The notes under the pieces: generated by a model | Databases searched by the model: none | Told to the model about the DNA's origin: nothing | Seen by the model: only the letters and a program-made list of their open reading frames with translations | Assembly: GCA_964576415.1 (NCBI GenBank) | Contig: CAZNWX010000001.1 | Coordinates: forward strand, 1-48,090 | DNA from: an uncultured Magnetovibrio sp. | GTDB lineage: Bacteria > Pseudomonadota > Alphaproteobacteria > Rhodospirillales > Casp-alpha2 | DNA: 48,090 nt | Reading direction: 5' to 3' | Part shown: in pieces, positions 8,834-34,659 of the stretch | How the letters are laid out: each line of letters opens with the position of its first letter | Position numbering within the stretch: the stretch's first letter is position 1 | Program-made: the position numbers and the translations under genes

Positions 8834-9333
8834 ACCCCTGGTGCGTCGTCCGTTCCCATGCGCACGCAGAGGCCAAGGCCTGCAACCATCTTCAGCGCCA
8901 AGGGTTCGCGGTTTACTATCCAAAATTCCTTCGGCGTCGATCCCATGCCCGCAAGGTTGACTGGATCCCCTCGCCACTGTTCCCGCGTTATCTCTTCGTC
9001 CAAATTGACTTTGAAAAATCGCGCTGGCTAAGCATTTACTCCACCATCGGCGTAGCTAATCTGATTTGCTTCGGTGACCGGCCGCAAAGTTTGCCCGGCG
9101 AAATCGTCGCCGAGCTCCGTGCCTGCGAAGATGACAAGGGCTACGTTAATTTGCACAAACGTCAAAGCATGGAGATCGGCGAAAATGTTCGCATTCTCCA
9201 TGGCTCGTTTACCGACCACATCGCTAAGCTAGAGGGTTTGGACGATAAAGGTCGCGTGACTTTGCTGCTTCAGTTAATGGGGCAAAGTGTACGCATGAAA
9301 ACTTCCCTGAATAATTTGGTCGCCGCCGAGTAA
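8830..9333 (+). CDS. NusG paralog, RfaH-like operon-specific transcription antiterminator
   Basis: 'MNPWCVVRSHAHAEAKACNHLQRQGF...PLFPRYLFVQ.....IGVANLICFGDRPQSLPGEIV...GENVRILHGSF...GRVTLLLQLMG' has the same order of conserved blocks as E. coli RfaH ('W..........A...L.RQ...PLFPNYLFVEFD...GV..FVRFG..P..VP...G..V.I..G.F.......R..LLL.L'). Confidence 0.85.
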   Translation: MNPWCVVRSHAHAEAKACNHLQRQGFAVYYPKFLRRRSHARKVDWIPSPLFPRYLFVQIDFEKSRWLSIYSTIGVANLICFGDRPQSLPGEIVAELRACEDDKGYVNLHKRQSMEIGENVRILHGSFTDHIAKLEGLDDKGRVTLLLQLMGQSVRMKTSLNNLVAAE

Positions 9334-9390
9334 TTTGTTTCAGGGAAGATGGGCCACCACTGCTATCTGGTGAAGGCGTTTCACCTGGAC

Positions 9391-9402
9391 TGCGGTAGCG
9401 TG
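9391..9402 (+). promoter_or_regulatory. ops-like (operon polarity suppressor) element TGCGGTAGCGTG
   Basis: Matches E. coli ops GGCGGTAGCGTG at 11 of 12 positions, on the coding (non-template) strand. It lies 57 nt after the stop of the RfaH-like gene and 30 nt before ATG 9433 of the first biosynthetic gene. Confidence 0.5.
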
Positions 9403-9432
9403 GAAAAATTTTGGCACTGTGAAAAACCCAGC

Positions 9433-10452
9433 ATGACTTCTGACCAAGACTTTTCCTGGCGGGGCAAACAGATTTTTGTGACCGGCGCGGATGGTTTCAT
9501 CGGCTCTCATCTATGCGAGGCGCTGGTTGCCGCTGGCGCTGACGTAACGGCTTTGGCGCTATACAACTCATTCGACCAGCTGGGATGGCTGGACGATATT
9601 GCTGACGACGCTCGTCGTGCCATGAGATTTGTTCGCGGTGACATCCGCGACGCCGCGCAGATGGCCGCGCTCTGCCGTGGCCAGGACTATGTGTTTCATC
9701 TGGCGGCGCTGATTGCCATTCCTTATTCCTACGACGCCCCGTCAAGCTATGTGCAGACCAATGTCCAGGGCACCTTGAACATTCTACGTGGTGCTCTTGA
9801 CGCTGGTGTAAGCGGCGTCATCCACACGTCAACCAGCGAAGTCTATGGAACTGCGCAATTCACTCCCATTACCGAAGATCACCCCTTGCAGGGTCAGTCG
9901 CCCTATTCTGCCTCAAAAATCGGTGCTGATATGATGGCAGAATCTTTTGCGCGCTCTTTTGAACTGCCGGTAATCACTATGCGACCGTTCAACACCTATG
10001 GTCCTCGCCAATCGGAGCGCGCGGTCATCAGTACGATCATTCGTCAAATCATCGACGATCGCTGCGACAGCATCCACATCGGGGACACCTCGCCAACACG
10101 TGATTTCAACTATGTGGGCGATACTGCCAATGCCTTCATGAAAATCGCTCCCTTGATCCCCAAGCATGCCGGCAGCGCATTCAACGCCGGTAGCGGCCGA
10201 ATGTTTTCCATCGGAGAGATGATTGAGATGGCCGTCAAGCTTACCGACTGCTCTAAGCCCATTGTAAAGGATTCGGCGCGAATTCGCCCGGCCAAAAGTG
10301 AAGTTCTAGCATTGATGGCGGATGCTTCGCGCTTCAATGCTCTTTCTGGTTGGGCGCCGCAGACGTCTTTGGAGTCGGGCCTGGAGCTTACGGTGGAGTG
10401 GTGGCGGCAACGAATTGACGCAATCCGCTCCGACGCTGGGTATATGGTATAG
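9433..10452 (+). CDS. NAD-dependent nucleotide-sugar 4,6-dehydratase (LegB/extended SDR type)
   Basis: 'KQIFVTGADGFIGSHLCEALV' Rossmann motif, 'TSTSEVYG', and the catalytic pair in 'YSASKIGADMM'. An in-frame ATG at 9349 would add 28 Cys/His-rich residues, and the start choice is uncertain. Confidence 0.85.
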   Translation: MTSDQDFSWRGKQIFVTGADGFIGSHLCEALVAAGADVTALALYNSFDQLGWLDDIADDARRAMRFVRGDIRDAAQMAALCRGQDYVFHLAALIAIPYSYDAPSSYVQTNVQGTLNILRGALDAGVSGVIHTSTSEVYGTAQFTPITEDHPLQGQSPYSASKIGADMMAESFARSFELPVITMRPFNTYGPRQSERAVISTIIRQIIDDRCDSIHIGDTSPTRDFNYVGDTANAFMKIAPLIPKHAGSAFNAGSGRMFSIGEMIEMAVKLTDCSKPIVKDSARIRPAKSEVLALMADASRFNALSGWAPQTSLESGLELTVEWWRQRIDAIRSDAGYMV

Positions 10453-10461
10453 AGCTGACAA

Positions 10462-11622
10462 ATGATACCGCTCGCCGTCCCCAATCTTTGTGGCAATGAG
10501 GCCCGTTATTTACAGGAGTGCATCGACACGACCTTTGTGTCGACCGTCGGCAAATTCGTCGGCCGATTCGAAGAGATTGTCGCCGCCGCCGCTGGAAGTA
10601 AGAGCGCCGTGGCCCTGGCGTCAGGGACCTGCGGCCTGCATATGGCTCTACGCGCTGTCGGTGTTTGCCGGGATAATTTGGTGGTAACCCCGGACTTTAC
10701 CTTCATCGCATCAGCCAATGCTGTTGCACATTGCGGCGCGGTGCCCTGGCTAATGGATGTCGACGTCGACACTTGGAGCCTCGATGCCGGGCTTTTGGCC
10801 AAAACCTTGCGTGCCGAGACCGAGCAGCGCGCCAACGGCCTTTTTCATCGCCCGAGCGGTCGACGCGTTGCCGCCATCTTGCCGGTTTACACACTTGGTT
10901 GCCCCGCCGACATGGACTCTATTGTCTCGCTCGCCGGTGAATTTGGCCTGCCGGTGGTTGCTGACGCGGCCGCGGCGCTTGGCGCAACCTACAAAGGGCG
11001 CCCCCCCGGCGTCATGGGCGCTAACCTCTCCGTTTTCTCGTTTAACGGCAATAAAACAGTCACTGCAGGCGGTGGTGGTATTGTCGCCGGCGACGATCTG
11101 GCACTTGTGGCCAAGGTCAAACATCTTTCCACAACCGCGAGGCAAGGCGAAGACTACGAGCACGACGAGATCGGTTTTAACTATCGCATGACTAATCTGC
11201 AGGCCGCCGTCGGCGTCGCGCAGATGGAAATGCTAGATCAAATGGTAGCGGCTAAGCGCCGCATCCGCGCCCGTTACGACGCGGTATTTCAGGGCCTGCA
11301 GGGCCTTCGCATTTTCCCTGACCCTGAGTGGGCGGAGAGCGCCTGCTGGTTTTCCGGCGTTGTGTTTGAGAACCCTAAGCCGGGCTTGCTAAAGGCGATT
11401 CGCGGCGAATTGCGTCATGTCGGTATCGACGCTAGGCCTTTTTGGCAACCCATACATCGCCAGCCACCCTTCGCCGATGCGCCGACAGAGTTGACGGGGG
11501 TAAGTGAATCTCTTAAAGATGCGATCCTGACTCTACCTTGTTCGACCGGCCTAAGCGAGATCGACCAGGAAACAGTCATCCGGTCGACTTTCGATATTTT
11601 AAATAAGTCGCTCCAGTCCTAG
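10462..11622 (+). CDS. DegT/DnrJ/EryC1/StrS-family PLP-dependent sugar aminotransferase (LegC/PglE-like)
   Basis: 'MIPLAVPNLCGNEARYLQECI', 'SGTCGLHMALRA', 'FSFNGNKTVTAGGGG' (PLP lysine) and 'GFNYRMTNLQAAVGVAQ'. Confidence 0.9.
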   Translation: MIPLAVPNLCGNEARYLQECIDTTFVSTVGKFVGRFEEIVAAAAGSKSAVALASGTCGLHMALRAVGVCRDNLVVTPDFTFIASANAVAHCGAVPWLMDVDVDTWSLDAGLLAKTLRAETEQRANGLFHRPSGRRVAAILPVYTLGCPADMDSIVSLAGEFGLPVVADAAAALGATYKGRPPGVMGANLSVFSFNGNKTVTAGGGGIVAGDDLALVAKVKHLSTTARQGEDYEHDEIGFNYRMTNLQAAVGVAQMEMLDQMVAAKRRIRARYDAVFQGLQGLRIFPDPEWAESACWFSGVVFENPKPGLLKAIRGELRHVGIDARPFWQPIHRQPPFADAPTELTGVSESLKDAILTLPCSTGLSEIDQETVIRSTFDILNKSLQS

Positions 11623-11632: not shown

Positions 11633-12685
11633 ATGGAAAATTGGAAACAAACCCTTTTGCCCGCTGAGACCACCGTCCGCGACGCAATGGAGCGCCTTGG
11701 TCAGTCTCGCAGTCATATCCTTTTGGTAGTTGATGAGAAACAACGGTTGCTGGGCACTGTAACAGATGGGGACATCCGTCGCGGCTTGCTGGGGGGCATG
11801 GCGCTGGAGACTTCTATCGCCCAGGTCATGAACCCATCGCCTATTATTGCCACTCCGGAAATTCCCGCTTCCGAACAACTTGTGATGCTGCGGAAGTTCA
11901 GCATTATGCAATTGCCTATTGTCGACTCAGACAACTGCGTATCCGCTCTCGTTGGCATCGACGACCTGGTTACAATTCCAGAAACACTGGAAAATCCAGT
12001 CGTTATAATGGCGGGCGGGCTGGGCACCCGCCTGCGACCAATGACCGAGGACACCCCCAAACCTTTGCTGCCTGTAGGGGGGCGCCCCATCCTGGAAACC
12101 ATCATCGAGCAATTGACGGGCCATGGCCTCACCCGCATTTTCCTCTCCGTCAACTACAAGTCGGAAATGGTGCGTAAACATTTTGGTGATGGCTCTAACT
12201 TCGGCGCTGACATCCGTTATTTGGAAGAAGAAGATAGTTTGGGCACGGCAGGCCCGCTGGGCTTAATCGAGGACGTAGGCGAAGCGCCGTTGTTGGTCAT
12301 GAACGGCGATCTGCTTACAAAATTGAACTTCAAGGCGCTGCTGTCCTATCACCGGGAACTGGAGAGCCAAGTCACCGTATGCGTCCGGGACTTTGACATG
12401 CAGGTGCCATTTGGTGTTATCGAACAAGACAATAATCGTGTGCGCGCTATTGTTGAAAAACCTATTCATAAATTCCTGGTGAATGCAGGCATCTACGTCG
12501 TCGAACCGCACGTCGTGCGCGAAGTGCCAAGGGGCCAACGCCTAGATATGCCGGACCTCCTGTGTCAACTGATGGACAATGACCAAGCTGTCGCCGCGTT
12601 CCCAGTACATGAATACTGGCTTGACGTCGGGCGCATCGAGGATATCAGCCGTGCTGCTTCTGAATTCAAAAGCATTTTCGAATAA
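11633..12685 (+). CDS. CBS-domain sugar-1-phosphate nucleotidyltransferase (PtmE-like, GlcNAc-1-P guanylyltransferase type)
   Basis: Tandem CBS region ('VRDAMERL...LLVVDEKQRLLGTVTDGDIRR', 'QLPIVDSDNCVSALVGIDDL') followed by the 'VVIMAGGLGTRLRPMTEDTPKPLLPVGGRPILE' nucleotidyltransferase signature. Confidence 0.9.
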   Translation: MENWKQTLLPAETTVRDAMERLGQSRSHILLVVDEKQRLLGTVTDGDIRRGLLGGMALETSIAQVMNPSPIIATPEIPASEQLVMLRKFSIMQLPIVDSDNCVSALVGIDDLVTIPETLENPVVIMAGGLGTRLRPMTEDTPKPLLPVGGRPILETIIEQLTGHGLTRIFLSVNYKSEMVRKHFGDGSNFGADIRYLEEEDSLGTAGPLGLIEDVGEAPLLVMNGDLLTKLNFKALLSYHRELESQVTVCVRDFDMQVPFGVIEQDNNRVRAIVEKPIHKFLVNAGIYVVEPHVVREVPRGQRLDMPDLLCQLMDNDQAVAAFPVHEYWLDVGRIEDISRAASEFKSIFE

Positions 12686-12725: not shown

Positions 12726-13892
12726 ATGACGCGCCAAGTGGCGGTTCTCAGTGTTGGTCGTTCCGATTTTGGCCGTTATTTGCCTGTGCTGCGTGAACTA
12801 AAGAATAATCCAAGCATTGAACTTCGGCTGATTGCGTCAGGTGGACATTTCTCTTCTCGCTCAGGAAATACTATCCACGAAGTGGAAGAGTCCGGCTTCG
12901 ATTGGGAACCTGGCTTTGCCGAGGACCTTTTAGGCGATAGCCCTGAAGACGTGGGTCAAGCCATCGGCAGGGCGGCGATTTGCTTAAGCCAAGCCTTCGC
13001 CATCCGGCGACCGGATCTTTTGGTTGTGCTTGGCGATCGCTTTGAAATGCTGTCAGGAGCCAGCGCAGCGCTTGGTTTCAATATTCCGGTGTTTCATATT
13101 TATGGGGGCTCCGTCACAGAGGGCGCCATAGACGAGCTTGTCCGCCATGCCCTAACTAAAATGAGCCACCTGCACTTTGTTTCATGTGAGCCTTATGCTC
13201 AACGTGTACGCCAGATGGGCGAAGAGGACTGGAGGGTTCATATTACCGGCGCACCGGGGCTCGACGATTTGAAGGCTATCGGCTCTCTGCCGCTCGATGA
13301 GCTCTCACAGTTTGTTGGCCTGAACCTCGAAAGACCGACTATTTTAGTCTGCTACCATCCTGTAACCCTGGAGCCTGGACAGGCAGGCCCACAGATTTCC
13401 AACCTGCTTGCCGCCATTGAGGGCCTCGACTATCAGATAATCTTGACCTATCCGAACATTGACCCCGGACACGAACCTGTGATTGACGCCATTGAAGCCT
13501 TTGCCGCGCGTCATTCTTCCCGTTCTCGGCTAATCCGGAACGCCGGCACTAGACGGTTCACCAGCCTGTTGAACTCTGTCGATGCCCTAGTTGGAAATTC
13601 GTCCAGCGGTATTGTCGAAGCCGCGACCTTCGCGCTCCCGGTGGTCAACATCGGCACCCGCCAAGATGGAAAAATCCGCGCCGCCAACATCATCGATACG
13701 GCCTACCAAACAGAAGCGATCCGAGTAGGATTGGACAAAGCGTTGAAATCGGAATTTCGCGCCGGTCTGGCGGGACTGGTCAACCCGAATGGAGATGGCC
13801 AAGCCGGCCCGCGCATTGCGCGCCTAATTGCCACGCAGAGCCTTGACGAACGGCTGTTGCGAAAAAAATTCGTCGACAGGCCCTACCTGTAA
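12726..13892 (+). CDS. Hydrolysing NDP-N-acetylhexosamine 2-epimerase (NeuC/LegG family), copy 1
   Basis: 'VLGDRFEMLSGASAA', 'HIYGGSVTEGAIDELVRHALTKMSHLHF', 'VGNSSSGIVEA' and 'NIGTRQDGK'. Confidence 0.9.
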   Translation: MTRQVAVLSVGRSDFGRYLPVLRELKNNPSIELRLIASGGHFSSRSGNTIHEVEESGFDWEPGFAEDLLGDSPEDVGQAIGRAAICLSQAFAIRRPDLLVVLGDRFEMLSGASAALGFNIPVFHIYGGSVTEGAIDELVRHALTKMSHLHFVSCEPYAQRVRQMGEEDWRVHITGAPGLDDLKAIGSLPLDELSQFVGLNLERPTILVCYHPVTLEPGQAGPQISNLLAAIEGLDYQIILTYPNIDPGHEPVIDAIEAFAARHSSRSRLIRNAGTRRFTSLLNSVDALVGNSSSGIVEAATFALPVVNIGTRQDGKIRAANIIDTAYQTEAIRVGLDKALKSEFRAGLAGLVNPNGDGQAGPRIARLIATQSLDERLLRKKFVDRPYL

Positions 13893-13927
13893 TTGCCATC
13901 AAGGCCCAAGATATTCGGAACCCAGCC

Positions 13928-14878
13928 GTGCAAAACGAAGTGACAAACCCCTTTAAGCGCATGATCCCATTGCCGATTTCTGCCCAGTCGGTCTACGATA
14001 AATTGAGCGCCAGCGACGCCTGCCTTATCGGTGACCCCGAGACGATGGCAGAGTCGGTCGCCTACTTGACAGATGGCGTACCTGGCTCGCTGGCTTTCTG
14101 GGACAAACCGGGACTGGACCCGGTGCGCCAGTCCCGTGCTGCGATCGTTTTCATCGCTGAAGAGATAAAGCCTGCGCCAGGCCGCGCGTTCATTCTTGTT
14201 GATGATCCGCGATGGTATTTCATTGAGATTGTTTCAGAGATGTTTCATGATCACGAAAAAGGAGCGCACCCTAGCGTAATTGTAGGAACAAACGTCACGT
14301 TGCCGACTTCAGTAATCGTCGGCGCCAACACCTATATCGGCGATAACGTGACGATCGGTGAGAATTCGCGGATTGGCAACAACTGCATCATTCACTCCGA
14401 TACCGTTATTGGCAGCTATTCTTGGATCAAAGATGCATGCATGATTGGCTCACACGGTCTTTCCTTCCATCGTAGTGCCAATGGCGAACTGGCTCGGTTT
14501 CCGCATCTGGGAGCAACGATCATCGAAGACTACGTCGAGCTTGGCACCGGCAGTTGCGTGGTCCGCGGCATGCTCTCCAACACTGAAATCCGCGCCCGCA
14601 CAAAAATAGGCAATTTAGTTAACATTGGTCATGGCTGTATCATCAACGAAGACTGCTGGATTTCCGGCTCCGCCTCTATCGGCGGCCACGCCGTATTAGG
14701 CAAGCGGGTATCGCTTGCAATGTCGGTGACCGTCGCCAATAGCGTCACCATCGGCCCCGATTCCCGTGTCGGAATCGGGTCAGTGGTCACCAAAACAGTT
14801 CCTGCGGACTCGAAATTATTCGGATGCCCCGCGCAACCCCTTAGGACCCTGAAACCGTTCGGCCCAACGCCTCGATAA
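13928..14878 (+). CDS. LpxD-like left-handed beta-helix N-acyltransferase (candidate acyl-ACP-dependent amino-sugar N-acyltransferase)
   Basis: Has an LpxD-type N-terminal domain ('GSLAFWDKPG....AAIVFIAEE....FILVDDPRWYF') followed by hexapeptide repeats. 'GSHGLSFHRSANGELARFPHLGATIIEDYVELGTGSCVVRG....TEIRARTKIGNLVNIGHG' parallels E. coli LpxD 'GADGFGY...[24 protein letters not shown]...IDNQCQIAHN'. The start is GTG 13928 or ATG 13961. Confidence 0.8.
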   Translation: MQNEVTNPFKRMIPLPISAQSVYDKLSASDACLIGDPETMAESVAYLTDGVPGSLAFWDKPGLDPVRQSRAAIVFIAEEIKPAPGRAFILVDDPRWYFIEIVSEMFHDHEKGAHPSVIVGTNVTLPTSVIVGANTYIGDNVTIGENSRIGNNCIIHSDTVIGSYSWIKDACMIGSHGLSFHRSANGELARFPHLGATIIEDYVELGTGSCVVRGMLSNTEIRARTKIGNLVNIGHGCIINEDCWISGSASIGGHAVLGKRVSLAMSVTVANSVTIGPDSRVGIGSVVTKTVPADSKLFGCPAQPLRTLKPFGPTPR

Positions 14879-15008
14879 ATTTATGCGGACTTTACTCGGG
14901 TATTACGACTTGAATAATCTATCTGAAGCCTTAATTACCGAGTGAGCGGCGGTTTTATCAACGGCTGTTGGCCGATCTCACAAGCACTTGCCTCTGAAAG
15001 GACCCGTC

Positions 15009-16355
15009 ATGAACGTTATCCGGCCCAAAGACAGGAACCTGATTTTCTTGGTGCACCCCGGCCACATTGCCGATGAAGAACCCTACATGCCTTACGAGTG
15101 CCTATGGCTAGCTCGCTTCCTGCTTAACAACGGCTACGAAGTCCAGATCATAGACCAGCGGCTCGAGGAACATTGGCAACAACGTATCTCAGACCGCAAA
15201 GATGAAGTGCTCTGGGTGGGTGTGACAATCATAACTGGGCCGCAAATCAAGTATGCGTTGGACACAGCTAAATTTGTTCGGTCAATCCCTCGCAACATTC
15301 CGATGGTTTGGGGCGGCTGGCACGCTACTTTCGTGGCGGGGAACACGGTCATCCATCCCCTTGTTGACTATGTCGTTGCGGGTATTGCCGAATTAAAAGT
15401 CGTCGAATTGACCGAGTATATTCGCGGAGGTGAGGTTGGCCCGCCCCCGACGACGCCTGGCATCCTGCATAAGCAAGGGAACCTGGACTATCAGGTGAAC
15501 AAAGAAGTTTATGTCGAGTCCGATTCGCTCCCTGCTTACCATCTGATAGATATCGACGCCTACCGTTCAGAAAATAACGTTGCGGGCATGATTACTTCGC
15601 GAGGCTGTCCGTTCCGCTGTAATTACTGCGTGATCCAGCAGATTCGGTTTTCTAACCGGGCGATAGACTCCGTAGTCGATGAAATAGAGTTCCTGGTTGG
15701 CGACAACGGCTTTGAAGTTATTCGCTTTGCGGATGGCCTATTTTTCGCACAAAGAGCGCGTGTGGAGAAGATTATCGGCGAGTGTCAAAAGCGTGGTTTA
15801 AAATTTAAATGGCAATCGAACGTTCGTCCAGAAACCTTCCGTCGTTGGAGCCAGGAAGGCATGGAGTGGTTGGTTGAGTCAGGTCTTGATTACGTGGCTT
15901 CGGGTGTAGAATCCGGTTCTGAATTTATGTTACAGCGTATTCAGAAGGACGCCACTGTCGACGATATTTATTTCACGACCGAAATTACCGAAAAATACGG
16001 TATTGGTCTGACCCTGAACTTTCTAAGCGGTCTGCCGCATGAAACAATTGATGATCTCAAATTCACCGCCGAAGTGATTGAGAAGTTGACGACGATGCAC
16101 TCACGGCTGCGCATTATTAATCCGCTGTACCGTCCGTTCCCAGGTGCGCCGACTTATAATGAAATGCTTAAGCTCGGCTGGACCCCGCCGCAGAGCCTAG
16201 AAGAATGGGCGGAAACCACCCAATGGAATATGGGGATTGAGAAAGTGGATCCCTTCCCTTGGATGGAAAAGAACGAATTTGACGAATATGTCAACTACTT
16301 CACCACCTCCGCGTTGGGCCGTGAACGCGAACCCGTGTTGCTAGAACGTCAGTAA
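15009..16355 (+). CDS. B12-binding-domain (class B) radical SAM enzyme
   Basis: N-terminal cobalamin-binding-like domain ('LIFLVHPG....YEVQIIDQRL....WVGVTIITGPQI') and the 'SRGCPFRCNYCVIQ' CxxxCxxC cluster motif. ATG 15009 is preceded by AAGGA. Confidence 0.85.
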   Translation: MNVIRPKDRNLIFLVHPGHIADEEPYMPYECLWLARFLLNNGYEVQIIDQRLEEHWQQRISDRKDEVLWVGVTIITGPQIKYALDTAKFVRSIPRNIPMVWGGWHATFVAGNTVIHPLVDYVVAGIAELKVVELTEYIRGGEVGPPPTTPGILHKQGNLDYQVNKEVYVESDSLPAYHLIDIDAYRSENNVAGMITSRGCPFRCNYCVIQQIRFSNRAIDSVVDEIEFLVGDNGFEVIRFADGLFFAQRARVEKIIGECQKRGLKFKWQSNVRPETFRRWSQEGMEWLVESGLDYVASGVESGSEFMLQRIQKDATVDDIYFTTEITEKYGIGLTLNFLSGLPHETIDDLKFTAEVIEKLTTMHSRLRIINPLYRPFPGAPTYNEMLKLGWTPPQSLEEWAETTQWNMGIEKVDPFPWMEKNEFDEYVNYFTTSALGREREPVLLERQ

Positions 16356-16502
16356 CATCGGCCGCTAGACACCAGCCCTCGAGTCAGGGTTTACTGATCT
16401 CTCTGCACCGCGATCGGCTGTCTTATTGCGCCACCGACTTATTTCGCCCGCCGAAGTGGTTTTCCACCAGACCGCGCTGATCTTCTCGCTTTAAAAATAG
16501 AC

Positions 16503-18020
16503 ATGGCTAAAACACCTTCAGCTTCCGAAAGCACGATCGGTGAGCTCATCCGGCACTGGGGTCGAATGTCAGCCGATAAACCTGCCATTATCTGTAACAA
16601 TGAAGCCTTTTCTTATGGTGCTTTTGTTGAGGAACTAGATGCCATCCTCCGCCACCTCGATGAAGCAGGAATTGCCAGGGGTGGGCGCGTGGTCATCGCC
16701 ATCAGTGACAAAAAGGCCTTCATCGTCGCCATGCTTGGCGTGATGTCCGCCGGCGCCGTTGCGGTTCCAGTAGTGGGCGAAAGCGCCGCCGCCATTGTGG
16801 ACATCGCTGACCATACTGACGCTGAATTAATGCTGCATGACGGCGAGGATGAAGATCTATTCGGTGACCTGCCCAGGCAGCGCTATCCGTTCACCAGCGA
16901 CACCGTGATCGGCGATGCTATGCGTCTTCATTCAGATATTGCCGATCCCGCAGTGATCTTGTTCACCTCTGGCACGCAAAGTCACCGCAAAGGCGTGGTG
17001 TTGTCTCACGCCAATCTCAACGCCACCGGCGATTACCTCAATCGCTTCCTCTATGTTGATCCAGACATCCGCGAATACGTTATCGCGCCGCCTTTCCACG
17101 CCTTTGGTTTTGGTCGGGTTCGCAGCGTGCTCATGGCCGGCGGCACGGTGGTATTTGACGCTGGCGAATTCAACGCACTAAGGGCGATCCGGGGCATTGA
17201 AACACATGCCTGCAATTCTCTTTCCTGCGTGTCCGCGACAATCATTTTGCTAGTCGAGAAATTCCGCGGGCGCACTGAGAGTTTTGCACAAAATATCCGT
17301 TGGATGGAAATCGGTAGTCAACCGATGCAGCGCGACCAAAAAAAACTAATCTGCGACACCTTTGCTAGCGCTCGAACGGCATTTAATTACGGCATGACCG
17401 AGGCCTCGCGCTCAACGTTGATAGATTTTAATCAAGAGAGAAGTCGGCTGGACTCTAGTGGCCGGGCCGCGCCAGGAACCGAGCTCCGCATATGCGATGA
17501 ACAGCGCCAACTAATGACCACCGGGAAGCTCGGTGTCATAGAAATGCGCGGGCCGCACATCGCCCTTGGCTACTGGCGCGACGATACGCTGTGGGCCAAG
17601 GCCTGTGTGGACGGATGGTTCCGCTCTGACGATGTCGGATATATGGACAACGAAGGTTACCTGTATTATGTGGGCCGTAGCGATGATCTTTTGAATGTCG
17701 GAGGTGAGATTGTCGCGCCGACAGACCTTGAATACGCTCTGCGCCAGCGCCTCGGCGATGAAGAGTTCATAATCCTGGGCGAAAGCGACCGCATCCGCGG
17801 TGAAGTGCCGGTAATCTGCTTCGAGCGTAGCGATGCCACCAATCTGGAATGGCCGGAGTTGATGAAAACGCTGATCGGCGCCGTACCGAATAAATTTCTT
17901 CCGCGCAAAGGTTACGTGGCCCCGCAATTCCCACGCACTGCAGTCGGCAAAATCAAACGCGCCCAATTACGGAACCAGATCAAATTCGGCGAGCTAACTG
18001 AAATCGAACGAACTAACTGA
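16503..18020 (+). CDS. AMP-dependent synthetase/ligase (acyl-CoA/acyl-ACP ligase, ANL superfamily)
   Basis: Core motifs 'ILFTSGTQSHRKGVVLSH', 'NYGMTEA', 'GWFRSDDVGYMDNEGYLYYVGRSDDLLNVGGEIV' and the C-terminal 'PRTAVGKIKR'. Confidence 0.9.
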   Translation: MAKTPSASESTIGELIRHWGRMSADKPAIICNNEAFSYGAFVEELDAILRHLDEAGIARGGRVVIAISDKKAFIVAMLGVMSAGAVAVPVVGESAAAIVDIADHTDAELMLHDGEDEDLFGDLPRQRYPFTSDTVIGDAMRLHSDIADPAVILFTSGTQSHRKGVVLSHANLNATGDYLNRFLYVDPDIREYVIAPPFHAFGFGRVRSVLMAGGTVVFDAGEFNALRAIRGIETHACNSLSCVSATIILLVEKFRGRTESFAQNIRWMEIGSQPMQRDQKKLICDTFASARTAFNYGMTEASRSTLIDFNQERSRLDSSGRAAPGTELRICDEQRQLMTTGKLGVIEMRGPHIALGYWRDDTLWAKACVDGWFRSDDVGYMDNEGYLYYVGRSDDLLNVGGEIVAPTDLEYALRQRLGDEEFIILGESDRIRGEVPVICFERSDATNLEWPELMKTLIGAVPNKFLPRKGYVAPQFPRTAVGKIKRAQLRNQIKFGELTEIERTN

Positions 18021-18050
18021 ACCCCGCCCTAGTTCGACTAAAAAATCAAT

Positions 18051-18290
18051 ATGAGCGTACAACCCGACAGCATAGCCCTGATCGAAGTCATCAAGCAGGC
18101 GGTTCCGCACCTCCCGTTGGTGATTGACGATCATAATAAACCCTTTGAGGCCTACGGCCTTGATTCGATCGACACCTCGGCGATCTTCATGGGCGTTGAA
18201 GAGGCTTACGACATCGCCATCAGTGACAAACAACTGGAGGATCTGGAGTGCGTTAATGACATCCTCAAGCTCTTGGCGGTTCAGTCGTGA
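18051..18290 (+). CDS. Stand-alone acyl carrier protein
   Basis: 79 aa with 'GLDSIDTSAIFMGVEEAYDIAISD', the phosphopantetheine attachment DS(I/L)D motif in helix II context. Its stop overlaps the next start (GTGA). Confidence 0.85.
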   Translation: MSVQPDSIALIEVIKQAVPHLPLVIDDHNKPFEAYGLDSIDTSAIFMGVEEAYDIAISDKQLEDLECVNDILKLLAVQS

Positions 18291-19294
18291 GCATTTACGT
18301 CATTGCGGAAATCGGCCCCAACCATAACGGTGACCTGGCGCTCGCGCGCGATATGGTGCGTCGCCTGAGTGACACCGGCGTAGATGCCGTAAAATTTCAG
18401 TTGTCTATTCCGGGGAATGTCTATTCAGCGGACGCCTACAAGGCGGACTATCAAAAGACCAATGACGGCGAAGGGTCTCCTCTGGACATGGCGCGTCGTA
18501 TCCAGCTGCCGGCGCGGGACCATCTCATCCTAGCCGAGGACTGCCGCACAGTGGGTCTGGACTACATGTGCACGGCCTTTGATATCGACAGTCTGCGTTT
18601 TCTCGATGACAATATTGAAATGCCCTATTTCAAGATTGCGTCGGGAGAAATTTTCTCCACGGACACGCTTGACTTCATGGCGCGGCGTGACCGCCCGATT
18701 TTACTGTCTACCGGCATGGCGAGCTTCAAAGATATCAAGGCTGCCCTTACTCTTTTGGAGGTCGAGGGGCCGAAGGACATAACCATACTGCATTGTGTCA
18801 GCAACTACCCGGCGCCCATCGACAGCATGAATCTGCGCGTCACCGAATCCCTGCGGGAGTGGTTCGGCAGGCCGGTCGGATTTTCCGATCATTCGCTCGG
18901 CAATGAATGCTGCCTGGCCGCTGCGGCTATGGGCGCGACGGTCTTAGAAAAGCACGTGACCGCAGATAAATCCATGAACGGCCCTGACCATAAGGCTTCT
19001 GCGACGATTGACGAAATGGCAGAATTGGTGAGGTCCGTGCGCCTGATCGAAAGTGCGCTTGGCGACGGCATAAAGGCCTTTACAGAAGCCGAGCTTGGCA
19101 TCCAACGTATGGCCCGCAAGAGCATCGTTGCGGCCGTGGACCTGCCCGAAGGCCATTTGATCGTGGCCTCGGACATTCGTTTCAAGCGACCGGGAACCGG
19201 CGTTTCGCCACTCGATGCGCATCTGGTTATTGGCAAGCGACTCCAGCGTGCCGTCACCGCCGACCGGGTGATTGATCCCGCTTGGCTGAGTTGA
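18287..19294 (+). CDS. Nonulosonic acid synthase (NeuB/LegI/PseI family), copy 1
   Basis: 'VIAEIGPNHNGDLALARDMVRRLSDTGVDAVKFQ', 'PYFKIASGEI', 'ILHCVSNYPAP' and 'GFSDHSLG', plus a C-terminal SAF-like domain ('RMARKSIVAAVDLPEGHLI'). Confidence 0.9.
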   Translation: MSIYVIAEIGPNHNGDLALARDMVRRLSDTGVDAVKFQLSIPGNVYSADAYKADYQKTNDGEGSPLDMARRIQLPARDHLILAEDCRTVGLDYMCTAFDIDSLRFLDDNIEMPYFKIASGEIFSTDTLDFMARRDRPILLSTGMASFKDIKAALTLLEVEGPKDITILHCVSNYPAPIDSMNLRVTESLREWFGRPVGFSDHSLGNECCLAAAAMGATVLEKHVTADKSMNGPDHKASATIDEMAELVRSVRLIESALGDGIKAFTEAELGIQRMARKSIVAAVDLPEGHLIVASDIRFKRPGTGVSPLDAHLVIGKRLQRAVTADRVIDPAWLS

Positions 19295-19319
19295 CTTCAG
19301 CAAGTTTCAAAATATCCTA

Positions 19320-20585
19320 ATGACTGATCTGTCTCCCTCCTCAAATACAATGCCTCAAAAGTTTATTTACGTTCTACAAACGCCCTTCACGCTGCGGGAC
19401 TATAAACGACACGGCATGGATATAATGGTGAAAAACGGCATCGAGGTTGTGGTCATTGATGCCAGTCGCGTGATTTATCCTACAATTATCTTCAACGATA
19501 GCCGCCTCAAAAGCCACGATAACATAGAGCTAGTGACCTGTTCCGACATCCTCGCCTTTCGTCGCGAGCTAAGCCGGCACGTGGATGCGGATCTGATTAT
19601 TAACCTTACGCAAAGCGGCATCTTGACCCGGTCGAATCTCTCGATTATGCGCGCCATCAGCCTTAGCACCCTTCCCTACATGATCTGGATTGGCCCGATA
19701 TTTCCTGGCTGGCGGGATAACGTGACCCGCAATCGCGTTAATCGAAGTCTGCGGAACCTAGTCTCGCTAATACACAAGAAAGATTATTTCTCGTCGATCA
19801 TCGCCAAACTGCCGATCCAATGGCTCGGTGTGCGCCATGCGAATTTCGCGCTGACAAGCGAGCCATTGCAACAACGGCCAAACAGCTTTATCGGTCCCGA
19901 GACCCGGATCATCCAGGGCAATCATCCGGATTTCAGCCTTTATCTAGATTACCTGGACGAAGACCATGAAGAAAAGGACCAGGCCGTCTTTATCGACCAA
20001 AACCTGCCATTCCACCATGACCTCCAGCATACGCGAACCAAGGGTATCGAGCCCGAACCATACTATGAGGCGCTTGAGCGATTCTTTAAGCATGTGGAGC
20101 GGACGCTTGGCCTGAAAGTCGTGGTTGCCCTGCACCCACGCGCTGATAAGGAACAAATTCAGCTCTATTTTCCCGGCCGGAAGCTGGTTCACCATGCGAC
20201 CCATCGCCTGGTCTTGGAAAGCAGGTTGGTTCTGGCCCACAGTAGCACCACTATTTCCATGGCGATCATGGCTTACAAACCGCTGATTATCATAACTACC
20301 GACGGACTTTGGAAACTGGGTGTCGAGCGAATGTTTGAGCAGGCGATTTCTAATGCCGCCGGAGTACCGTTGATTTTTGCCGACGGCATCCTGCCCGATG
20401 ACATGGCGCCTGTCATGACGATCGACCGGGAGTGCTATGACGATTACCTGGCCACTTATATCCGCAACCCCAGCACGGCGCGCCTACCGACATGGCGGAT
20501 TGGACTCGATGCGTTTCGCGAATCGTTTGGGGAGTGCAATCCAGCCCCCGCACGAAGCGTCATCACCTCGGAGGCTGCCACATGA
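19320..20585 (+). CDS. Hypothetical protein; possible GT-B-like glycosyl/nonulosonyl transferase
   Basis: 421-aa ORF with no motif I can name. The C-terminal half, 'VVVALHPRADKEQ.....LAHSSTTISMAIMAYKPLIIIT', resembles the nucleotide-sugar-binding half of GT-B/capsule-type transferases. It lies between the two nonulosonic acid modules. Confidence 0.55.
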   Translation: MTDLSPSSNTMPQKFIYVLQTPFTLRDYKRHGMDIMVKNGIEVVVIDASRVIYPTIIFNDSRLKSHDNIELVTCSDILAFRRELSRHVDADLIINLTQSGILTRSNLSIMRAISLSTLPYMIWIGPIFPGWRDNVTRNRVNRSLRNLVSLIHKKDYFSSIIAKLPIQWLGVRHANFALTSEPLQQRPNSFIGPETRIIQGNHPDFSLYLDYLDEDHEEKDQAVFIDQNLPFHHDLQHTRTKGIEPEPYYEALERFFKHVERTLGLKVVVALHPRADKEQIQLYFPGRKLVHHATHRLVLESRLVLAHSSTTISMAIMAYKPLIIITTDGLWKLGVERMFEQAISNAAGVPLIFADGILPDDMAPVMTIDRECYDDYLATYIRNPSTARLPTWRIGLDAFRESFGECNPAPARSVITSEAAT

Positions 20586-21211
20586 GCCCATTGCCTATAA
20601 TTCTCGTCGGGGCCGGTGGCCACGCGCGATCATGTATTGACGTCATCGAACAAGCCGGCAGCTATGACATCGCCGGCCTGGTCGCTGTGCCCAGCGAGGT
20701 TGGCAGCCAAACCCTGGGCTACGAAGTGCTGGGGACCGACACCGATCTGACAGGCCTATTTCAACGCTTTGACCACGCTTTGATCGCGGTCGGCCAAATT
20801 AAAACCGCAGAAACACGTATACGGTTGTTTCAGTTGCTTGAGAATATGGATTGCAGCTTGCCTACCATTATCTCCCCGCACGCCTATGTGTCGCGGCATG
20901 CGACACTCGGGGCAGGCACCATCGTCATGCATGGCGCAGTGATCAATGCCGGCGCCAACGTCGGACGAAACTGCATCGTCAACAGTCAAGCTTTGGTCGA
21001 GCATGATGCAGAAATCGCTAATCACTGCCACATTTCCACAGCCGCCGCCGTCAATAGTGGCGTCAGCGTGGGCGAGGGTACTTTCATCGGCAGCGGCGCC
21101 AGTGTCCGCCAAGGTATACGCATTGGCACACACTGCGTTATTGGCATGGGCCAGCGGGTGCTCAAAGACTACCTCGATTACAGCCAGCTGCCGCCGGTAA
21201 GAGCTGAATGA
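20582..21211 (+). CDS. neuD: NeuD/PglD-family hexapeptide sugar O/N-acetyltransferase
   Basis: 'PIILVGAGGHARSCIDVIE' Rossmann-like N-terminal domain followed by left-handed beta-helix repeats ('IVMHGAVINAGANVGRNCIVNSQALVEHDAEIANHCHIS'). ATG 20582 overlaps the upstream stop (ATGA). Confidence 0.85.
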   Translation: MSPLPIILVGAGGHARSCIDVIEQAGSYDIAGLVAVPSEVGSQTLGYEVLGTDTDLTGLFQRFDHALIAVGQIKTAETRIRLFQLLENMDCSLPTIISPHAYVSRHATLGAGTIVMHGAVINAGANVGRNCIVNSQALVEHDAEIANHCHISTAAAVNSGVSVGEGTFIGSGASVRQGIRIGTHCVIGMGQRVLKDYLDYSQLPPVRAE

Positions 21212-22218
21212 TTGAGCATACCCTGATTATCGCCGAAGCCGGGGTCAATCATAACGGCCGTCTGGATCATGCGCTTGAACTGGTTCGCCGCGCCGCCGAG
21301 GCCGGGGCCGACATGGTGAAGTTCCAGACCTTCAGCGCTGAGCGCCTTGTTACGGCAAAGGCGCGAAAAGCCGACTATCAAGCCGAGGCGCTCGGAGCGG
21401 GCGGCGGGCAGTACGACATGCTTAAGTTGCTCGAAATGAGTACGGAAATGCACGAAAAACTATTGGCGGAATGTCGGCAACGGCGAATTGGCTTTACCTT
21501 CTCCGCTTTCGATGAACAAGCCGTCGATTATGTGGCGGAACTCGGCGTTGAATGGTTCAAGGTGCCATCGGGCGAAATCACCAATATGCCCTATCTGTGC
21601 CGCGTCGGTGGGTACGCACGAAAAGTGCTGCTGTCAACGGGCATGTCAACTATGGACGAAGCCTGCGCAGCGATCTCAGTGCTTGAAGCATCCGGCACGT
21701 CGCGCCGAGATATCACCGTACTTCATTGCAACACTGAATACCCGACACCCATGACGGATGTAAACCTGCGGGCGATGAACGCGATGGCCGATGTTCTGGA
21801 CGTCGCCGTGGGCTACTCCGACCATACTTTGGGAATCGAGGTGCCCGTGGCGGCGGTGGCGCTTGGCGCCCAGGTAATCGAAAAGCACTTTACTTTGGAC
21901 CGCGATATGGATGGTCCTGACCACCGGGCCAGTCTGGAGCCCGATGAACTTGCCGCGATGGTTCACGCTATCCGCAACATAGAGCGTGCGCTCGGAAAGC
22001 CGGTTAAAGCGCCCAGCCCAAGCGAAGCTAAAAACATAACCTCTATTCGAAAGGCCCTAGTCGCACTGAGACCAATCAGGGCCGGCGAGACCTTCTCGCC
22101 CGAAAACGTAACCGCCAAACGCCCGGCGACGGGGCTATCTCCCATGCTTTGGGATTCGGTAATGGGAAAGACCGCGCTGCGGGCCTTTGACATCGACGAG
22201 CCGATTGAGGTCGGATGA
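21208..22218 (+). CDS. neuB: Nonulosonic/sialic acid synthase (NeuB family), copy 2
   Basis: 'IIAEAGVNHNGRLDHALELVRRAAEAGADMVKFQ', 'EWFKVPSGEI', 'VLHCNTEYPTP' and 'GYSDHTLG', plus a SAF-like C-terminus. Confidence 0.9.
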   Translation: MIEHTLIIAEAGVNHNGRLDHALELVRRAAEAGADMVKFQTFSAERLVTAKARKADYQAEALGAGGGQYDMLKLLEMSTEMHEKLLAECRQRRIGFTFSAFDEQAVDYVAELGVEWFKVPSGEITNMPYLCRVGGYARKVLLSTGMSTMDEACAAISVLEASGTSRRDITVLHCNTEYPTPMTDVNLRAMNAMADVLDVAVGYSDHTLGIEVPVAAVALGAQVIEKHFTLDRDMDGPDHRASLEPDELAAMVHAIRNIERALGKPVKAPSPSEAKNITSIRKALVALRPIRAGETFSPENVTAKRPATGLSPMLWDSVMGKTALRAFDIDEPIEVG

Positions 22219-23378
22219 CCCGGAAGATATGCATCATCACCGGTACACGGGCGGAATACGGCCTGTTACGTTGGGTCATCGAGGGCGTTCGGGATCATCC
22301 GGCACTGAGCCTCCAATTAGTCGTCACCGGCATGCACCTGTCGCCTAAATTCGGCGAGACTTATCGAGAAATTGAAACCGACGGCTTCACTATCGATCGT
22401 AAGGTGGATATAGACCTGAACTCGGATTTGCCGGCCGATCTGAGCCGATCCATTGGCCTGGGATTCACGGGCTTTGGGACTGTTTTTGGGGAACTGGAGC
22501 CTGATCTGGTGGTCGTCCTGGGGGACCGTTTCGAAATCCTGGCGGCGGCCGGCGCGGCAATGATGTGTCGTATTCCCATCGCGCATGTGCACGGCGGTGA
22601 AGCCACCGAGGGCCTGATTGATGAAGCCATACGTCATTCCGTTACCAAAATGGCACACCTGCATTTCGCTGCCGCTAAGCCCTACCGTGACCGTATCATT
22701 CAACTAGGCGAGCAGCCCGATCGGGTCTTTGAGGTCGGCGGACTCGGGGTCGACGGCATTCCAAGGCTTGACCTGATGGATCGGGCGGCTCTAGAAGGAT
22801 CACTCGATTTCAAGTTGGCCAAAACCAATCTTTTAATCACTTTTCATCCAGTGACCTTGGAAACAGCGAGTTCCACGGAGCAGATGACGGCGTTATTTGA
22901 GGCCCTCTCGGAGCTGGACGGCACAGGTTTGATTTTCACCATGCCCAATGCGGATATAGAAGGTGGCGTGCTATTCGATCTGATAGAGGCGTTTGTACGC
23001 CACCATCCATTCGCCAAGGCCTTCACCTCGCTGGGCCATCTGCGTTATCTTTCTTGCGTGCGGCTGGTAGACGGGGTGGTGGGAAATTCATCGAGCGGCC
23101 TGATTGAAGCGCCGAGCCTCGGCACCGGCACACTCAACATCGGAGATCGCCAGCGCGGGCGATTAAAAGCGGACAGCGTCATTGACTGCGCGCCGAGTCG
23201 GGACGCCATCACGGCCGGTCTGGCGCAACTCTTATCGACAGAATTTCGCCAAAGGCTGACCAAAATCGCCAACCCCTATGGCTCTGGAGGTGCGAGCGAC
23301 AGGATCGTCAATGCCTTGGCCCAGGCGCCGCTCGACGATCTATTAAAGAAAAAATTCTACGATCTGCCACTGCCGTGA
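22215..23378 (+). CDS. neuC: Hydrolysing UDP-GlcNAc 2-epimerase (NeuC family), copy 2
   Basis: 'ICIITGTRAEYGLL', 'VLGDRFEILAAAGAA', 'HVHGGEATEGLIDEAIRHSVTKMAHLHF' and 'VGNSSSGLIEA'. Confidence 0.9.
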   Translation: MTRKICIITGTRAEYGLLRWVIEGVRDHPALSLQLVVTGMHLSPKFGETYREIETDGFTIDRKVDIDLNSDLPADLSRSIGLGFTGFGTVFGELEPDLVVVLGDRFEILAAAGAAMMCRIPIAHVHGGEATEGLIDEAIRHSVTKMAHLHFAAAKPYRDRIIQLGEQPDRVFEVGGLGVDGIPRLDLMDRAALEGSLDFKLAKTNLLITFHPVTLETASSTEQMTALFEALSELDGTGLIFTMPNADIEGGVLFDLIEAFVRHHPFAKAFTSLGHLRYLSCVRLVDGVVGNSSSGLIEAPSLGTGTLNIGDRQRGRLKADSVIDCAPSRDAITAGLAQLLSTEFRQRLTKIANPYGSGGASDRIVNALAQAPLDDLLKKKFYDLPLP

Positions 23379-23388: not shown

Positions 23389-24282
23389 ATGAAAATTGGC
23401 TTTGTCGGATCGGTTGCCTTTTCTGAAAACGCACTTCACCATCTGGTTGCCATTGGCCCAAAAACAAGCAGCGAGGTGGTCGGCGTCTGCGCGCTCGAAC
23501 ACGCGGCGTTCAACGCCGACCACGTGGACCTGACTGCCGCCGCAGCTGCCGCCGGCATAGCTGCCCGCTATACGCCGGACATCAACGCGCCCGAGGTGTG
23601 CGGTTGGCTCGCTGAATTGGACTGCGACGTAATTTTCTGCTTTGGCTGGTCGCGTCTTCTTGGACCCGAATTACTGAAACTGCCGCGGCTTGGCGTGGTC
23701 GGCTTTCATCCTGCGGCCTTACCCGCCAACCGCGGCCGGCACCCGATCATTTGGGCGTTGGCCTTGGGACTCGAGGAAACAGCCTCCAGTTTCTTTTTCA
23801 TGTCGGAGGGAGCAGATACAGGCGATATTCTGTCACAGGAACCCATAGCCATTACTAGCCAAGACGATGCGTCGAGTCTTTATGCTAAGATTACCGCGCG
23901 TGCGTTGAAACAGATATCCACCTTTGTTCCGCAACTGGTGGACGGTAGTTTTTCCCGCCGCTCCCAGGATACAAGCCTCGCCAACACTTGGCGGAAGCGC
24001 GGCTCCGAAGACGGGCGTATAGACTGGCGCATGTCGGCTCGAACCATCCACAATCTCGTGCGCGCCTTAACGAGACCATACGTTGGCGCACACTTCGTTC
24101 GTGACGGCGCTGAATACAAAGTCTGGAGGACCGCAGTCATCGAGACGGCGCCGGCGGATGCAGAGCCGGGAAAGGTGCTTGCGGTTTCCGCCCAGGGTGT
24201 CGATGTCAAGTGCGGTGATCAGGCTGTACGGCTTTTAGAGACAGAAGCGACTATCACCTTCACCATGGGAGACTATATTTGA
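23389..24282 (+). CDS. Formyltransferase (Fmt/ArnA-N-like) acting on an amino sugar
   Basis: 'CDVIFCFGWSRLLGPELLKLPRLGVVGFHPAALPANRGRHPIIWAL' is the formyl_trans_N catalytic segment, and a C-terminal Fmt-like beta-barrel region follows. Confidence 0.85.
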   Translation: MKIGFVGSVAFSENALHHLVAIGPKTSSEVVGVCALEHAAFNADHVDLTAAAAAAGIAARYTPDINAPEVCGWLAELDCDVIFCFGWSRLLGPELLKLPRLGVVGFHPAALPANRGRHPIIWALALGLEETASSFFFMSEGADTGDILSQEPIAITSQDDASSLYAKITARALKQISTFVPQLVDGSFSRRSQDTSLANTWRKRGSEDGRIDWRMSARTIHNLVRALTRPYVGAHFVRDGAEYKVWRTAVIETAPADAEPGKVLAVSAQGVDVKCGDQAVRLLETEATITFTMGDYI

Positions 24283-26318: not shown

Positions 26319-26349
26319 CCCTGAACCGGGGCTCCTGGGCATACTAACA

Positions 26350-34652: not shown

Positions 34653-34659
34653 TCGGAAA

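Follow-up and report, generated by a model that had tools for sequence, protein, structure and literature searches.

What do an acyl carrier protein (ACP), an adenylating ligase, an acyltransferase resembling LpxD, and a B12-binding radical S-adenosylmethionine (SAM) enzyme contribute to an operon for a legionaminic acid-type nonulosonic acid? The question is posed by 48,090 nt of DNA from an uncultured Magnetovibrio sp. (GenBank assembly GCA_964576415.1, contig CAZNWX010000001.1, positions 1 to 48,090), hereafter the window, in which a legionaminic-type locus spans ~8.2–33.6 kb on the + strand. An earlier sequence-only reading of this DNA had named LegB, LegC, a CBS-domain nucleotidyltransferase, NeuC, the LpxD-like protein, the radical SAM enzyme, the ligase, the ACP, and NeuB in that order, and all of these genes are present, in this order on the + strand, at the coordinates it had assigned to them. 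It had also described the four genes from the acyltransferase to the ACP as inserted where a simple acetyltransferase normally sits, and this part is not supported, as a PglD/PerB-type enzyme with its own NeuB and NeuC (NeuB2 and NeuC2) starts right after the block that contains the cassette (20582–23378). Because a LegH-like enzyme is present with its own NeuB and NeuC, the cassette looks like a parallel branch and not like a replacement. The interpretation that we favor, with slightly more confidence than doubt, is that one LegB/LegC/PtmE-like set feeds two parallel late branches and that ACP-dependent N-acylation takes place on the second.

A seven-gene block with its own epimerase and synthase

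The real unit is larger than the four-gene cassette, consisting of seven genes (12726–20585) with their own epimerase, synthase, and probable transferase:

12726–13892, + strand: NeuC1, a divergent hydrolyzing 2-epimerase (TIGR03568, 4.7e-113, above cutoff)
13928–14878, + strand: LpxD-like two-domain left-handed beta-helix N-acyltransferase (Hexapep, 7e-18; LpxD N-domain, 1.9e-6; TIGR01853, 7e-63)
15009–16355, + strand: rSAM1, a radical SAM protein with a B12-binding domain (PF02310 and PF04055; open reading frame from 14988, likely ATG at 15009)
16503–18020, + strand: ANL-superfamily adenylating ligase (AMP-binding, 1.9e-48, 165.6 bits)
18051–18290, + strand: stand-alone carrier protein of 79 aa (PP-binding, PF00550, 1.5e-7, 32 bits against a cutoff of 20.8)
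18287–19294, + strand: NeuB1, a divergent nonulosonate synthase (NeuB and SAF domains)
19320–20585, + strand: GT-B fold protein, candidate glycosyltransferase and last gene of the block (fold match)

The divergence of NeuB1 places it under the TIGR03569 cutoff (356.6 versus 399.65 bits). The last protein of the block has no Pfam or NCBIfam match, the protein database contains no more than 10 relatives of it, and the top Foldseek matches of its AF2 model (pLDDT 82.5, pTM 0.80) are GT-B glycosyltransferases (probability 1.0). On the strength of this modeled fold, it is a candidate glycosyltransferase for the product of the branch.

Three metagenome contigs (L001–L003) keep the order LegC, PtmE-like, NeuC1, LpxD-like, radical SAM, ligase, ACP, NeuB1, and a gene of unknown function, and a 420 kb contig from JGI has the whole arrangement, second branch included, with an acyltransferase 90% identical to that of the window. 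The co-occurrence of the four-gene insert with neuB elsewhere, which the sequence-only reading had put forward for checking, is seen in these contigs. Between the window and L001, the radical SAM enzyme is the most conserved protein of the block (84.5% identity), followed by NeuB1 (69%), NeuC1 (67%), and the acyltransferase (66%), with LegC and the PtmE-like protein both at 62%, the ligase at 52%, the ACP at 51%, and the GT-B protein at 43%. Junctions are tight throughout, with short gaps or 4-nt overlaps (ACP/NeuB1 and GT-B/LegH-like), and this, together with the same order in independent metagenome contigs, means that the arrangement is not due to chance.

Comparison with the near-identical JGI locus also revealed uneven divergence. 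Of the 316 residues of the LpxD-like protein, 31 differ (90% identity), 17 of these in the N-terminal domain, against 1 of 448 in rSAM1 (99.8%) and 6 of 411 in the GT-B protein. The LpxD-like protein could owe its divergence to local recombination or to diversifying change.

The acyltransferase and its acid-supply neighbors

The product of 13928–14878 falls below every LpxD cutoff (TIGR01853, 212.5 versus 242.5 bits; PRK00892, 179.8 versus 207; PF04613, 28.1 versus 30.8), and its best sequence matches in the PDB are LpxD throughout. Its AF2 model combines an alpha/beta N-terminal domain (pLDDT 86–94) with a beta-helix, and the 23 best PDB matches found with Foldseek are all LpxD (319–355 columns, probability 0.99–1.0), at a TM-score of only ~0.3. 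The catalytic histidine, His235 (IGNLVNIGHG; LpxD motif NLVxIxH), is invariant in 12 relatives, as is the sequence FPHLG. Judged from these features, the protein would be an LpxD-derived N-acyltransferase in function but not an LpxD.

The clade to which it belongs is rare, with five protein clusters at ≥51% identity, that is, at least 51%, among 5.8 billion proteins, and a scan of JGI metagenomes with the clade alignment returned one locus only, which was already known (L093, the same as L002). In L094, an acyltransferase 51% identical to that of the window has a NeuC1 orthologue (62%) directly upstream and ComA, (2R)-phospho-3-sulfolactate synthase, directly downstream. In L095, a 39% identical acyltransferase is followed by an unknown gene, KASIII, a stand-alone ACP, and a CTP_transf_3/GNAT fusion, a nonulosonate cytidylyltransferase. 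A NeuC1-type epimerase adjoins the clade in both L001 and L094, and a carrier protein is encoded within a few genes of the acyltransferase in L001 and L095 as well as in the window. What recurs is the combination of an N-acyltransferase and nonulosonate genes with a module for acid supply, be it ligase-ACP, KASIII-ACP, or sulfolactate synthesis, and the supplied acid probably differs between loci. These neighborhoods, with their NeuC1 epimerase and acid-supply genes, support ACP-dependent N-acylation in a nonulosonate pathway. A group of 313-aa "LpxD" relatives (P0028, ~35% identity) was set aside because of its unrelated gene context.

Motifs A3, A5, A7, and A8 and the A10 lysine are all present in the translated ligase (FTSGTQSHRKG, YGMTE, SDDVGY, GRSDDLLNVGGE, and PRTAVGKIKR), in which GRSDD and GKIKR, with the A10 lysine, are also legible. 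The enzyme is presumed to load the carrier protein, which keeps the attachment-site serine (YGLDSID; GxDS motif) and whose gene overlaps that of NeuB1 by 4 nt. The ligase adjoins an ACP in three contexts, namely the window, L001 (52% identical), and L088 (37% identical).

The sulfolactate genes inside nonulosonate loci merit a separate remark. ComA of L094 (2007–2753) lies beside the 51% identical acyltransferase relative, and in L088 the ligase-ACP pair is followed by a ComA/ComB fusion (2373–3803) and an aminoglycoside-type N-acetyltransferase. Both contexts suggest an N-sulfolactyl nonulosonate. No literature joining sulfolactate with pseudaminic acid was found.

A canonical branch in the same operon

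Upstream of the block are the regulatory and early biosynthetic genes:

8177–8833, + strand: MarR-type helix-turn-helix regulator, head of the operon (Pfam HTH_24/MarR_2)
8830–9333, + strand: NusG paralogue, head of the operon (Pfam NusG)
9349–10452, + strand: LegB-like 4,6-dehydratase (TIGR04180, 3.7e-125)
10462–11622, + strand: LegC-like aminotransferase (TIGR04181, 1.7e-120)
11633–12685, + strand: PtmE-like CBS-domain sugar-1-phosphate nucleotidyltransferase (CBS and NTP_transferase)

For both LegB and LegC, the named family is the best by far, with scores just below cutoff (416.9 versus 475 for TIGR04180 and 402.2 versus 420 for TIGR04181). Neither an Rfam scan of the window, which covered cobalamin riboswitches, nor a comparison of its promoter-like and terminator-like sites with shuffled expectation gave a match or an excess, respectively. 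The MarR-type and NusG genes overlap by 4 nt directly 5' of LegB, and the same pair stands ahead of the locus in the 420 kb contig from JGI, which suggests operon-specific antitermination (RfaH/LoaP-like) of a very long glycan operon.

Downstream of the block are the genes of a second, conventional set of late enzymes and of several tailoring enzymes:

20582–21211, + strand: LegH-like PglD/PerB-type N-acetyltransferase (PglD_N and Hexapep; TIGR03570, 1.8e-56)
21208–22218, + strand: NeuB2 (above equivalog cutoff)
22215–23378, + strand: NeuC2 (above equivalog cutoff)
23389–24282, + strand: formyltransferase
24279–24941, + strand: PIG-L deacetylase
24975–26318, + strand: WbuX-type amidotransferase
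26212–27054, + strand: methyltransferase
27051–27746, + strand: CMP-nonulosonate synthetase, the sole cytidylyltransferase of the nonulosonate locus (CTP_transf_3)
32188–33590, + strand: HisF/HisH partners of WbuX

The LegH-like protein scores above the TIGR03570 cutoff (190.9 versus 160.8 bits), and its true start at 20582 overlaps the stop of the GT-B gene. Its best PDB match is the GDP-perosamine N-acetyltransferase PerB (1.8e-24), and its best solved relatives, PerB, PglB, VioB, and PglD, are N-acetyltransferases of NDP-4-amino-6-deoxyhexoses. All junctions from 20582 to 23378 are 4-nt overlaps. NeuB1 and NeuB2 are only 38% identical, as are NeuC1 and NeuC2, so that both are pairs of old paralogues and do not stem from a recent duplication. 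A PDB comparison of NeuB1 and NeuB2 did not separate legionaminic from neuraminic specificity.

The CMP-nonulosonate synthetase scores 142.9 with the PseF model, for which the cutoff is 205.7. Beside NeuB2 and NeuC2, the formyltransferase and PIG-L genes overlap by 4 nt and, by analogy, suggest a deacetylate-then-formylate pair; in Ca. Kuenenia, a legionaminic deacetylase/formyltransferase cluster has been linked to free-amine and N-formyl nonulosonates (bioRxiv 10.64898/2026.04.20.719630).

Proposed pathway

From the observed gene content, synteny, motifs, folds, and neighborhoods, we infer all chemical steps of the second branch. LegB, LegC, and the PtmE-like protein would make an intermediate for both branches, presumably GDP-4-amino-4,6-dideoxy-GlcNAc. 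On the ordinary branch, the intermediate would pass to the LegH-like acetyltransferase and then to NeuC2 and NeuB2. On the second, the ligase would adenylate a free carboxylic acid and load it onto the dedicated holo-ACP, and the LpxD-like enzyme would pass the ACP-borne acyl group on to an amine of the sugar, most economically the C4 amine of GDP-4-amino-4,6-dideoxy-GlcNAc, which would become N7 of the final sugar. NeuC1 and NeuB1, presumably matched to the bulkier substrate, would then release and 2-epimerize the acylated sugar and condense it with phosphoenolpyruvate. The product would be activated by the single cytidylyltransferase and perhaps transferred by the GT-B protein.

As to the group transferred, our guess is a short 3-hydroxyacyl, since LpxD, which acylates a C2 amine after its exposure by a deacetylase, takes (R)-3-hydroxyacyl-ACP as its donor, and since the acyltransferase relative in L095 is paired with KASIII and an ACP.

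The B12 radical SAM enzyme

Both domains of rSAM1 are above threshold (PF02310, 38.8 bits versus 32.1; PF04055, 64.9 versus 29.5), and the CxxxCxxC motif (C200-x3-C204-x2-C207) is invariant in 17 orthologues. Against NCBIfam there were 19 matches, all far below cutoff, and no characterized methylase subfamily was reached. A profile search of solved structures returned AprD4 (1e-17), TsrM (3e-17), OxsB (1e-11), and TokK (5e-7). The dehydratase AprD4, the methylase TsrM, and OxsB rank near-equal, with no single closest subfamily, so that the reaction, as far as sequence indicates, could be a methylation, a dehydration, or another. The gene is flanked by gaps of 130 and 147 bp, whereas no other gap from 8.8 to 27.7 kb exceeds 100 bp. 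These two are not conserved with L001 and contain no meaningful repeats.

The orthologous group is well delimited, at 44–55% identity with the next drop to 34%, and comprises, with the 85% identical orthologue of L001–L003, ~17–19 clusters at 44–85% identity among 5.8 billion proteins; most of those sampled lie in nonulosonate loci. Eight orthologue contexts were read, including that of L001–L003. Four of the eight are pseudaminic-type loci (L088, L089, which also has a flagellin gene, L090, and L092), and one is a glycan locus (L087). L089, L090, and L092 each combine NeuB, an ATP-grasp ligase, PIG-L, and an rSAM1 orthologue (45–50%), with a pyridoxal phosphate enzyme in two of the three. They have no LpxD-like gene, and no carrier protein was found in them, the small open reading frames of L090 and L092 included. 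The methyltransferases beside the rSAM1 orthologues are not orthologous to those of the window. A scan of genome contigs with the rSAM1 alignment found only generic B12 radical SAM proteins at ≤30% identity among the 80 loci listed.

Because the orthologues in L089, L090, and L092 occur without an LpxD-like gene or an ACP that could be found, rSAM1 does not seem to be tied to the ACP system as such. It is probably not ACP-dependent, and its family accompanies nonulosonate loci in which amides other than acetyl are put in place in different ways. The enzyme would act on the sugar or on an already attached N-acyl substituent, with C-methylation as the leading guess for a protein with a B12 domain. 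In Magnetospirillum, "higher-carbon" (C10) CMP-ulosonic acids have been detected by mass spectrometry, with no gene named (bioRxiv 10.64898/2026.04.20.719630). That rSAM1 represents a nonulosonate-specific family that forms a C–C bond on the skeleton or on the N-acyl group, and is the missing enzyme for these acids, is an idea that we consider decidedly unlikely; the Magnetospirillum compounds are a speculative lead for the family and not evidence. Were it true, the product of the locus would, with the ACP branch, be a C-branched, unusually N-acylated legionaminic acid. In the library searched, no paper connects radical SAM enzymes with nonulosonic acids, and the best-ranked papers on pseudaminic acid, legionaminic acid, or NeuB do not bring in radical SAM.

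Two further observations were made on B12 radical SAM loci. NeuB is nearby in at least 3 of the 80 listed generic loci (L066, L072, and L075). LIC12162-family proteins (PF27859) are common to L087, L088, and L090, as is a second uncharacterized family of 500–650 aa (24–35% identity); both may be glycosyltransferases there, and both are absent from the window.

Weighing the alternatives

Several points weigh against the two-branch interpretation or parts of it. The C-terminal helical ACP-recognition domain of LpxD is absent from the LpxD-like protein, which ends ~9 residues past the last position aligned to Chlamydia trachomatis LpxD. The clade terminates at FGPTPR throughout, and residues 289–316 are disordered in the AF2 model, with no helix. 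Many beta-helix sugar N-acyltransferases take CoA donors, and the case for ACP use comes from gene neighborhood and not from a docking domain. N-acylation from a dedicated ACP, as advanced by the sequence-only reading, has gained from the position of the clade beside NeuC1 and acid-supply genes and from the intact catalytic histidine, ligase motifs, and ACP serine, but its argument that LpxD enzymes take acyl-ACP has lost force with the missing helices. The acylated position could also be C2, which is the amine that LpxD acylates, and a PIG-L deacetylase is encoded in the locus. NeuB2 and NeuC2 could be of the neuraminic and not of the legionaminic type. With regard to rSAM1, no nonulosonate genes lie within reach of the orthologue in L091 or of that in a second contig of the same JGI sample, which counts against the association with nonulosonate loci; in contrast, an ACP, a ligase, and the orthologue lie within 7 kb in L088, and in both the window and L001 the gene is inside the cassette, between the acyltransferase and the ligase, so that a link to the acyl group is conceivable.

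These last two placements would fit a single pathway in which the cassette replaces LegH and the radical SAM enzyme tailors the ACP-bound acyl group, by methylation or rearrangement, before transfer, and the top NCBIfam matches of rSAM1 do include a lipid-biosynthesis B12/radical SAM family, all below cutoff. We nevertheless consider this unlikely, given the PglD/PerB-type acetyltransferase and second NeuB/NeuC pair in the same operon, the rSAM1 orthologues of L089, L090, and L092 with neither ACP nor LpxD-like gene, the presence of ComA and not a radical SAM gene after the LpxD-like gene of L094, and the different rate of rSAM1, which is 99.8% identical between near-identical loci where the acyltransferase is 90% identical. 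The suggestion of the sequence-only reading that the cobalamin enzyme modifies an ACP-borne acyl group is weakened by the same three ACP-free orthologues, and L088 and the position within the cassette leave room for the link. The acyltransferase might instead act together with, and not in parallel to, the LegH-like enzyme, acylating after PIG-L the C2 amine that becomes N5, following the logic of LpxC and LpxD. The genuine LpxD does acylate a deacetylase-exposed C2 amine, natural nonulosonates commonly have a group other than acetyl at N5, and PIG-L is found not only in the window locus but also with the rSAM1 orthologues of L089, L090, and L092. The overlap of PIG-L with the formyltransferase, however, points to the deacetylate-then-formylate pair, the 12.4 kb block of L001 shows no deacetylase, and acylation at C2 explains the NeuC/NeuB pair that travels with the acyltransferase no better than two branches do, so that we rate it as improbable to a similar degree.

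The identity of the canonical branch could be questioned as well. NeuB2 and NeuC2 pass the equivalog cutoffs for N-acetylneuraminate synthase and UDP-GlcNAc 2-epimerase, and TIGR03570 also takes in NeuD O-acetyltransferases, as would be expected if these genes made up a neuraminic pathway with an O-acetyltransferase and the LpxD-like branch, with its enzyme standing in for LegH, were the sole legionaminic route. Yet the equivalog models do not split LegI and LegG from NeuB and NeuC, the best solved relatives of the acetyltransferase (PerB, PglB, VioB, and PglD) are N-acetyltransferases, the adjoining genes (formyltransferase, deacetylase, amidotransferase) are of a kind typical for diamino nonulosonates, and there is a single cytidylyltransferase in the locus; we find this scenario quite improbable. 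We give hardly any credence to an uncoupling of the ligase and ACP from the acyltransferase, in which the latter would use an acyl-CoA donor and the former would serve another sugar or lipid. The missing ACP-docking helices of the LpxD type are in keeping with it, as is the wealth of other chemistry encoded in the window (heptose-type, transketolase, SPASM radical SAM, and several methyltransferase genes), but in three divergent contexts a carrier protein is encoded close to a member of the acyltransferase clade, and the ACP and NeuB1 genes overlap by 4 nt. Two parallel branches, with ACP-dependent N-acylation on the second, are therefore the interpretation that we retain.

Other features of the glycan region

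A low-GC island of the window at 27835–31436 (0.41–0.46 versus 0.53–0.58 around it) contains a second B12 radical SAM protein, of 677 aa and of a KedN5-like C-methyltransferase family at a score far below cutoff, and an LA_1612-family putative O-antigen protein, with large gaps (353 and 751 bp), and is probably a separate acquisition. A 680-aa B12 radical SAM protein is likewise paired with the rSAM1 orthologue of L087. At 33621–40675 are two SDR epimerase/dehydratases, a cytidylyltransferase-PfkB kinase fusion (HldE-like), two proteins without family match (37261–38899), and a split transketolase (38865–40675), which together suggest a heptose or branched-chain sugar pathway. At 42131–47898, a pattern of methyltransferase, SPASM-domain radical SAM protein, and RmlD-like reductase occurs twice (42131/42797/43821 and 44674/45778/46975), with the order changed. 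In total, four radical SAM enzymes are encoded in one glycan region.

Relation to known systems and implications

The tetronate genes of the Vibrio cholerae O1 rfb region offer a parallel. There, perosamine, as a GDP-linked 4-amino-6-deoxyhexose, is N-acylated by a hexapeptide acyltransferase together with an AMP-ligase-like enzyme and a dedicated carrier protein. The substrate is a hexose and not a nonulosonate precursor, the acyltransferase belongs to another family, and no radical SAM enzyme is known to take part. With LpxD of lipid A synthesis, the window enzyme shares the N-terminal alpha/beta domain, the long left-handed beta-helix, the catalytic histidine, and presumably both the N-acylation of a nucleotide-sugar amine and an acyl-ACP donor. 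It differs in its lack of C-terminal helices, its scores below the equivalog cutoff, its place in a nonulosonate operon and not beside lpxA, fabZ, and lpxB, and its substrate, presumably a GDP-linked 4-amino sugar. TsrM, TokK, CysS, OxsB, and the diol-dehydratase AprD4, cobalamin-dependent radical SAM enzymes with sugars or small molecules as substrates, have in common with rSAM1 a B12-binding domain and a CxxxCxxC core.

The closest precedents in nonulosonate biosynthesis come from Acinetobacter baumannii, in which 7-N-(R)-3-hydroxybutanoyl legionaminic and pseudaminic acids track with co-replacement of the acyltransferase and the next enzyme (lgaDE by lgaHI and psaDE by psaGH), the corresponding modules being lgaABCHIFG for Leg5Ac7RHb and psaABCGHF for Pse5Ac7RHb (PMC9676051, PMC3628348). 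The same swap of acyltransferase and next enzyme is found in Psb4/Psb5 of Shigella boydii type 7 (PMC9676051, PMC3628348). As in those species, a non-acetyl 7-N-acyl group would be installed in the window by a swapped acyltransferase and a matched enzyme, here the LpxD-like protein with NeuC1 and NeuB1. The Acinetobacter and Shigella acyltransferases, however, are variants of the usual small acetyltransferase, and those loci have one module each and no ACP, ligase, or radical SAM gene, whereas the window has an LpxD-derived acyltransferase, a dedicated ligase and ACP, and both branches in one operon. Flagellin glycosylation islands of Aeromonas group II and of Enterobacteriaceae contain genes for an ACP, an AMP-dependent synthetase, FabG, and LuxC/LuxE (PMC7874193, PMC4875605). 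They resemble the window in having a stand-alone ACP and an AMP-forming ligase among nonulosonate (pse) genes, with acyl or lipid addition proposed without proof, and are unlike it in having LuxC/LuxE and FabG but no LpxD-like protein, B12 radical SAM enzyme, or duplicated NeuB/NeuC. Literature joining "nonulosonic" with "acyl carrier protein" describes no such cassette in its titles and abstracts. The locus belongs with the known alternative N-acyl nonulosonate modules and is a rare one, from uncultured organisms.

Flagellins, capsules, and O-antigens are capped with nonulosonic acids, whose N-acyl groups determine how antibodies, phages, and the immune system recognize them; the way in which groups other than acetyl are put in place is known by inference only, pathogens included. 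The locus provides a compact and testable system of ligase, carrier protein, LpxD-derived transferase, and apparently matched epimerase and synthase, in which the standard branch serves as an internal control. If our interpretation is true, an ACP-dependent route, and possibly radical chemistry, would be added to the biosynthesis of sialic acid-like sugars, and the enzymes may be of use for making new analogues.

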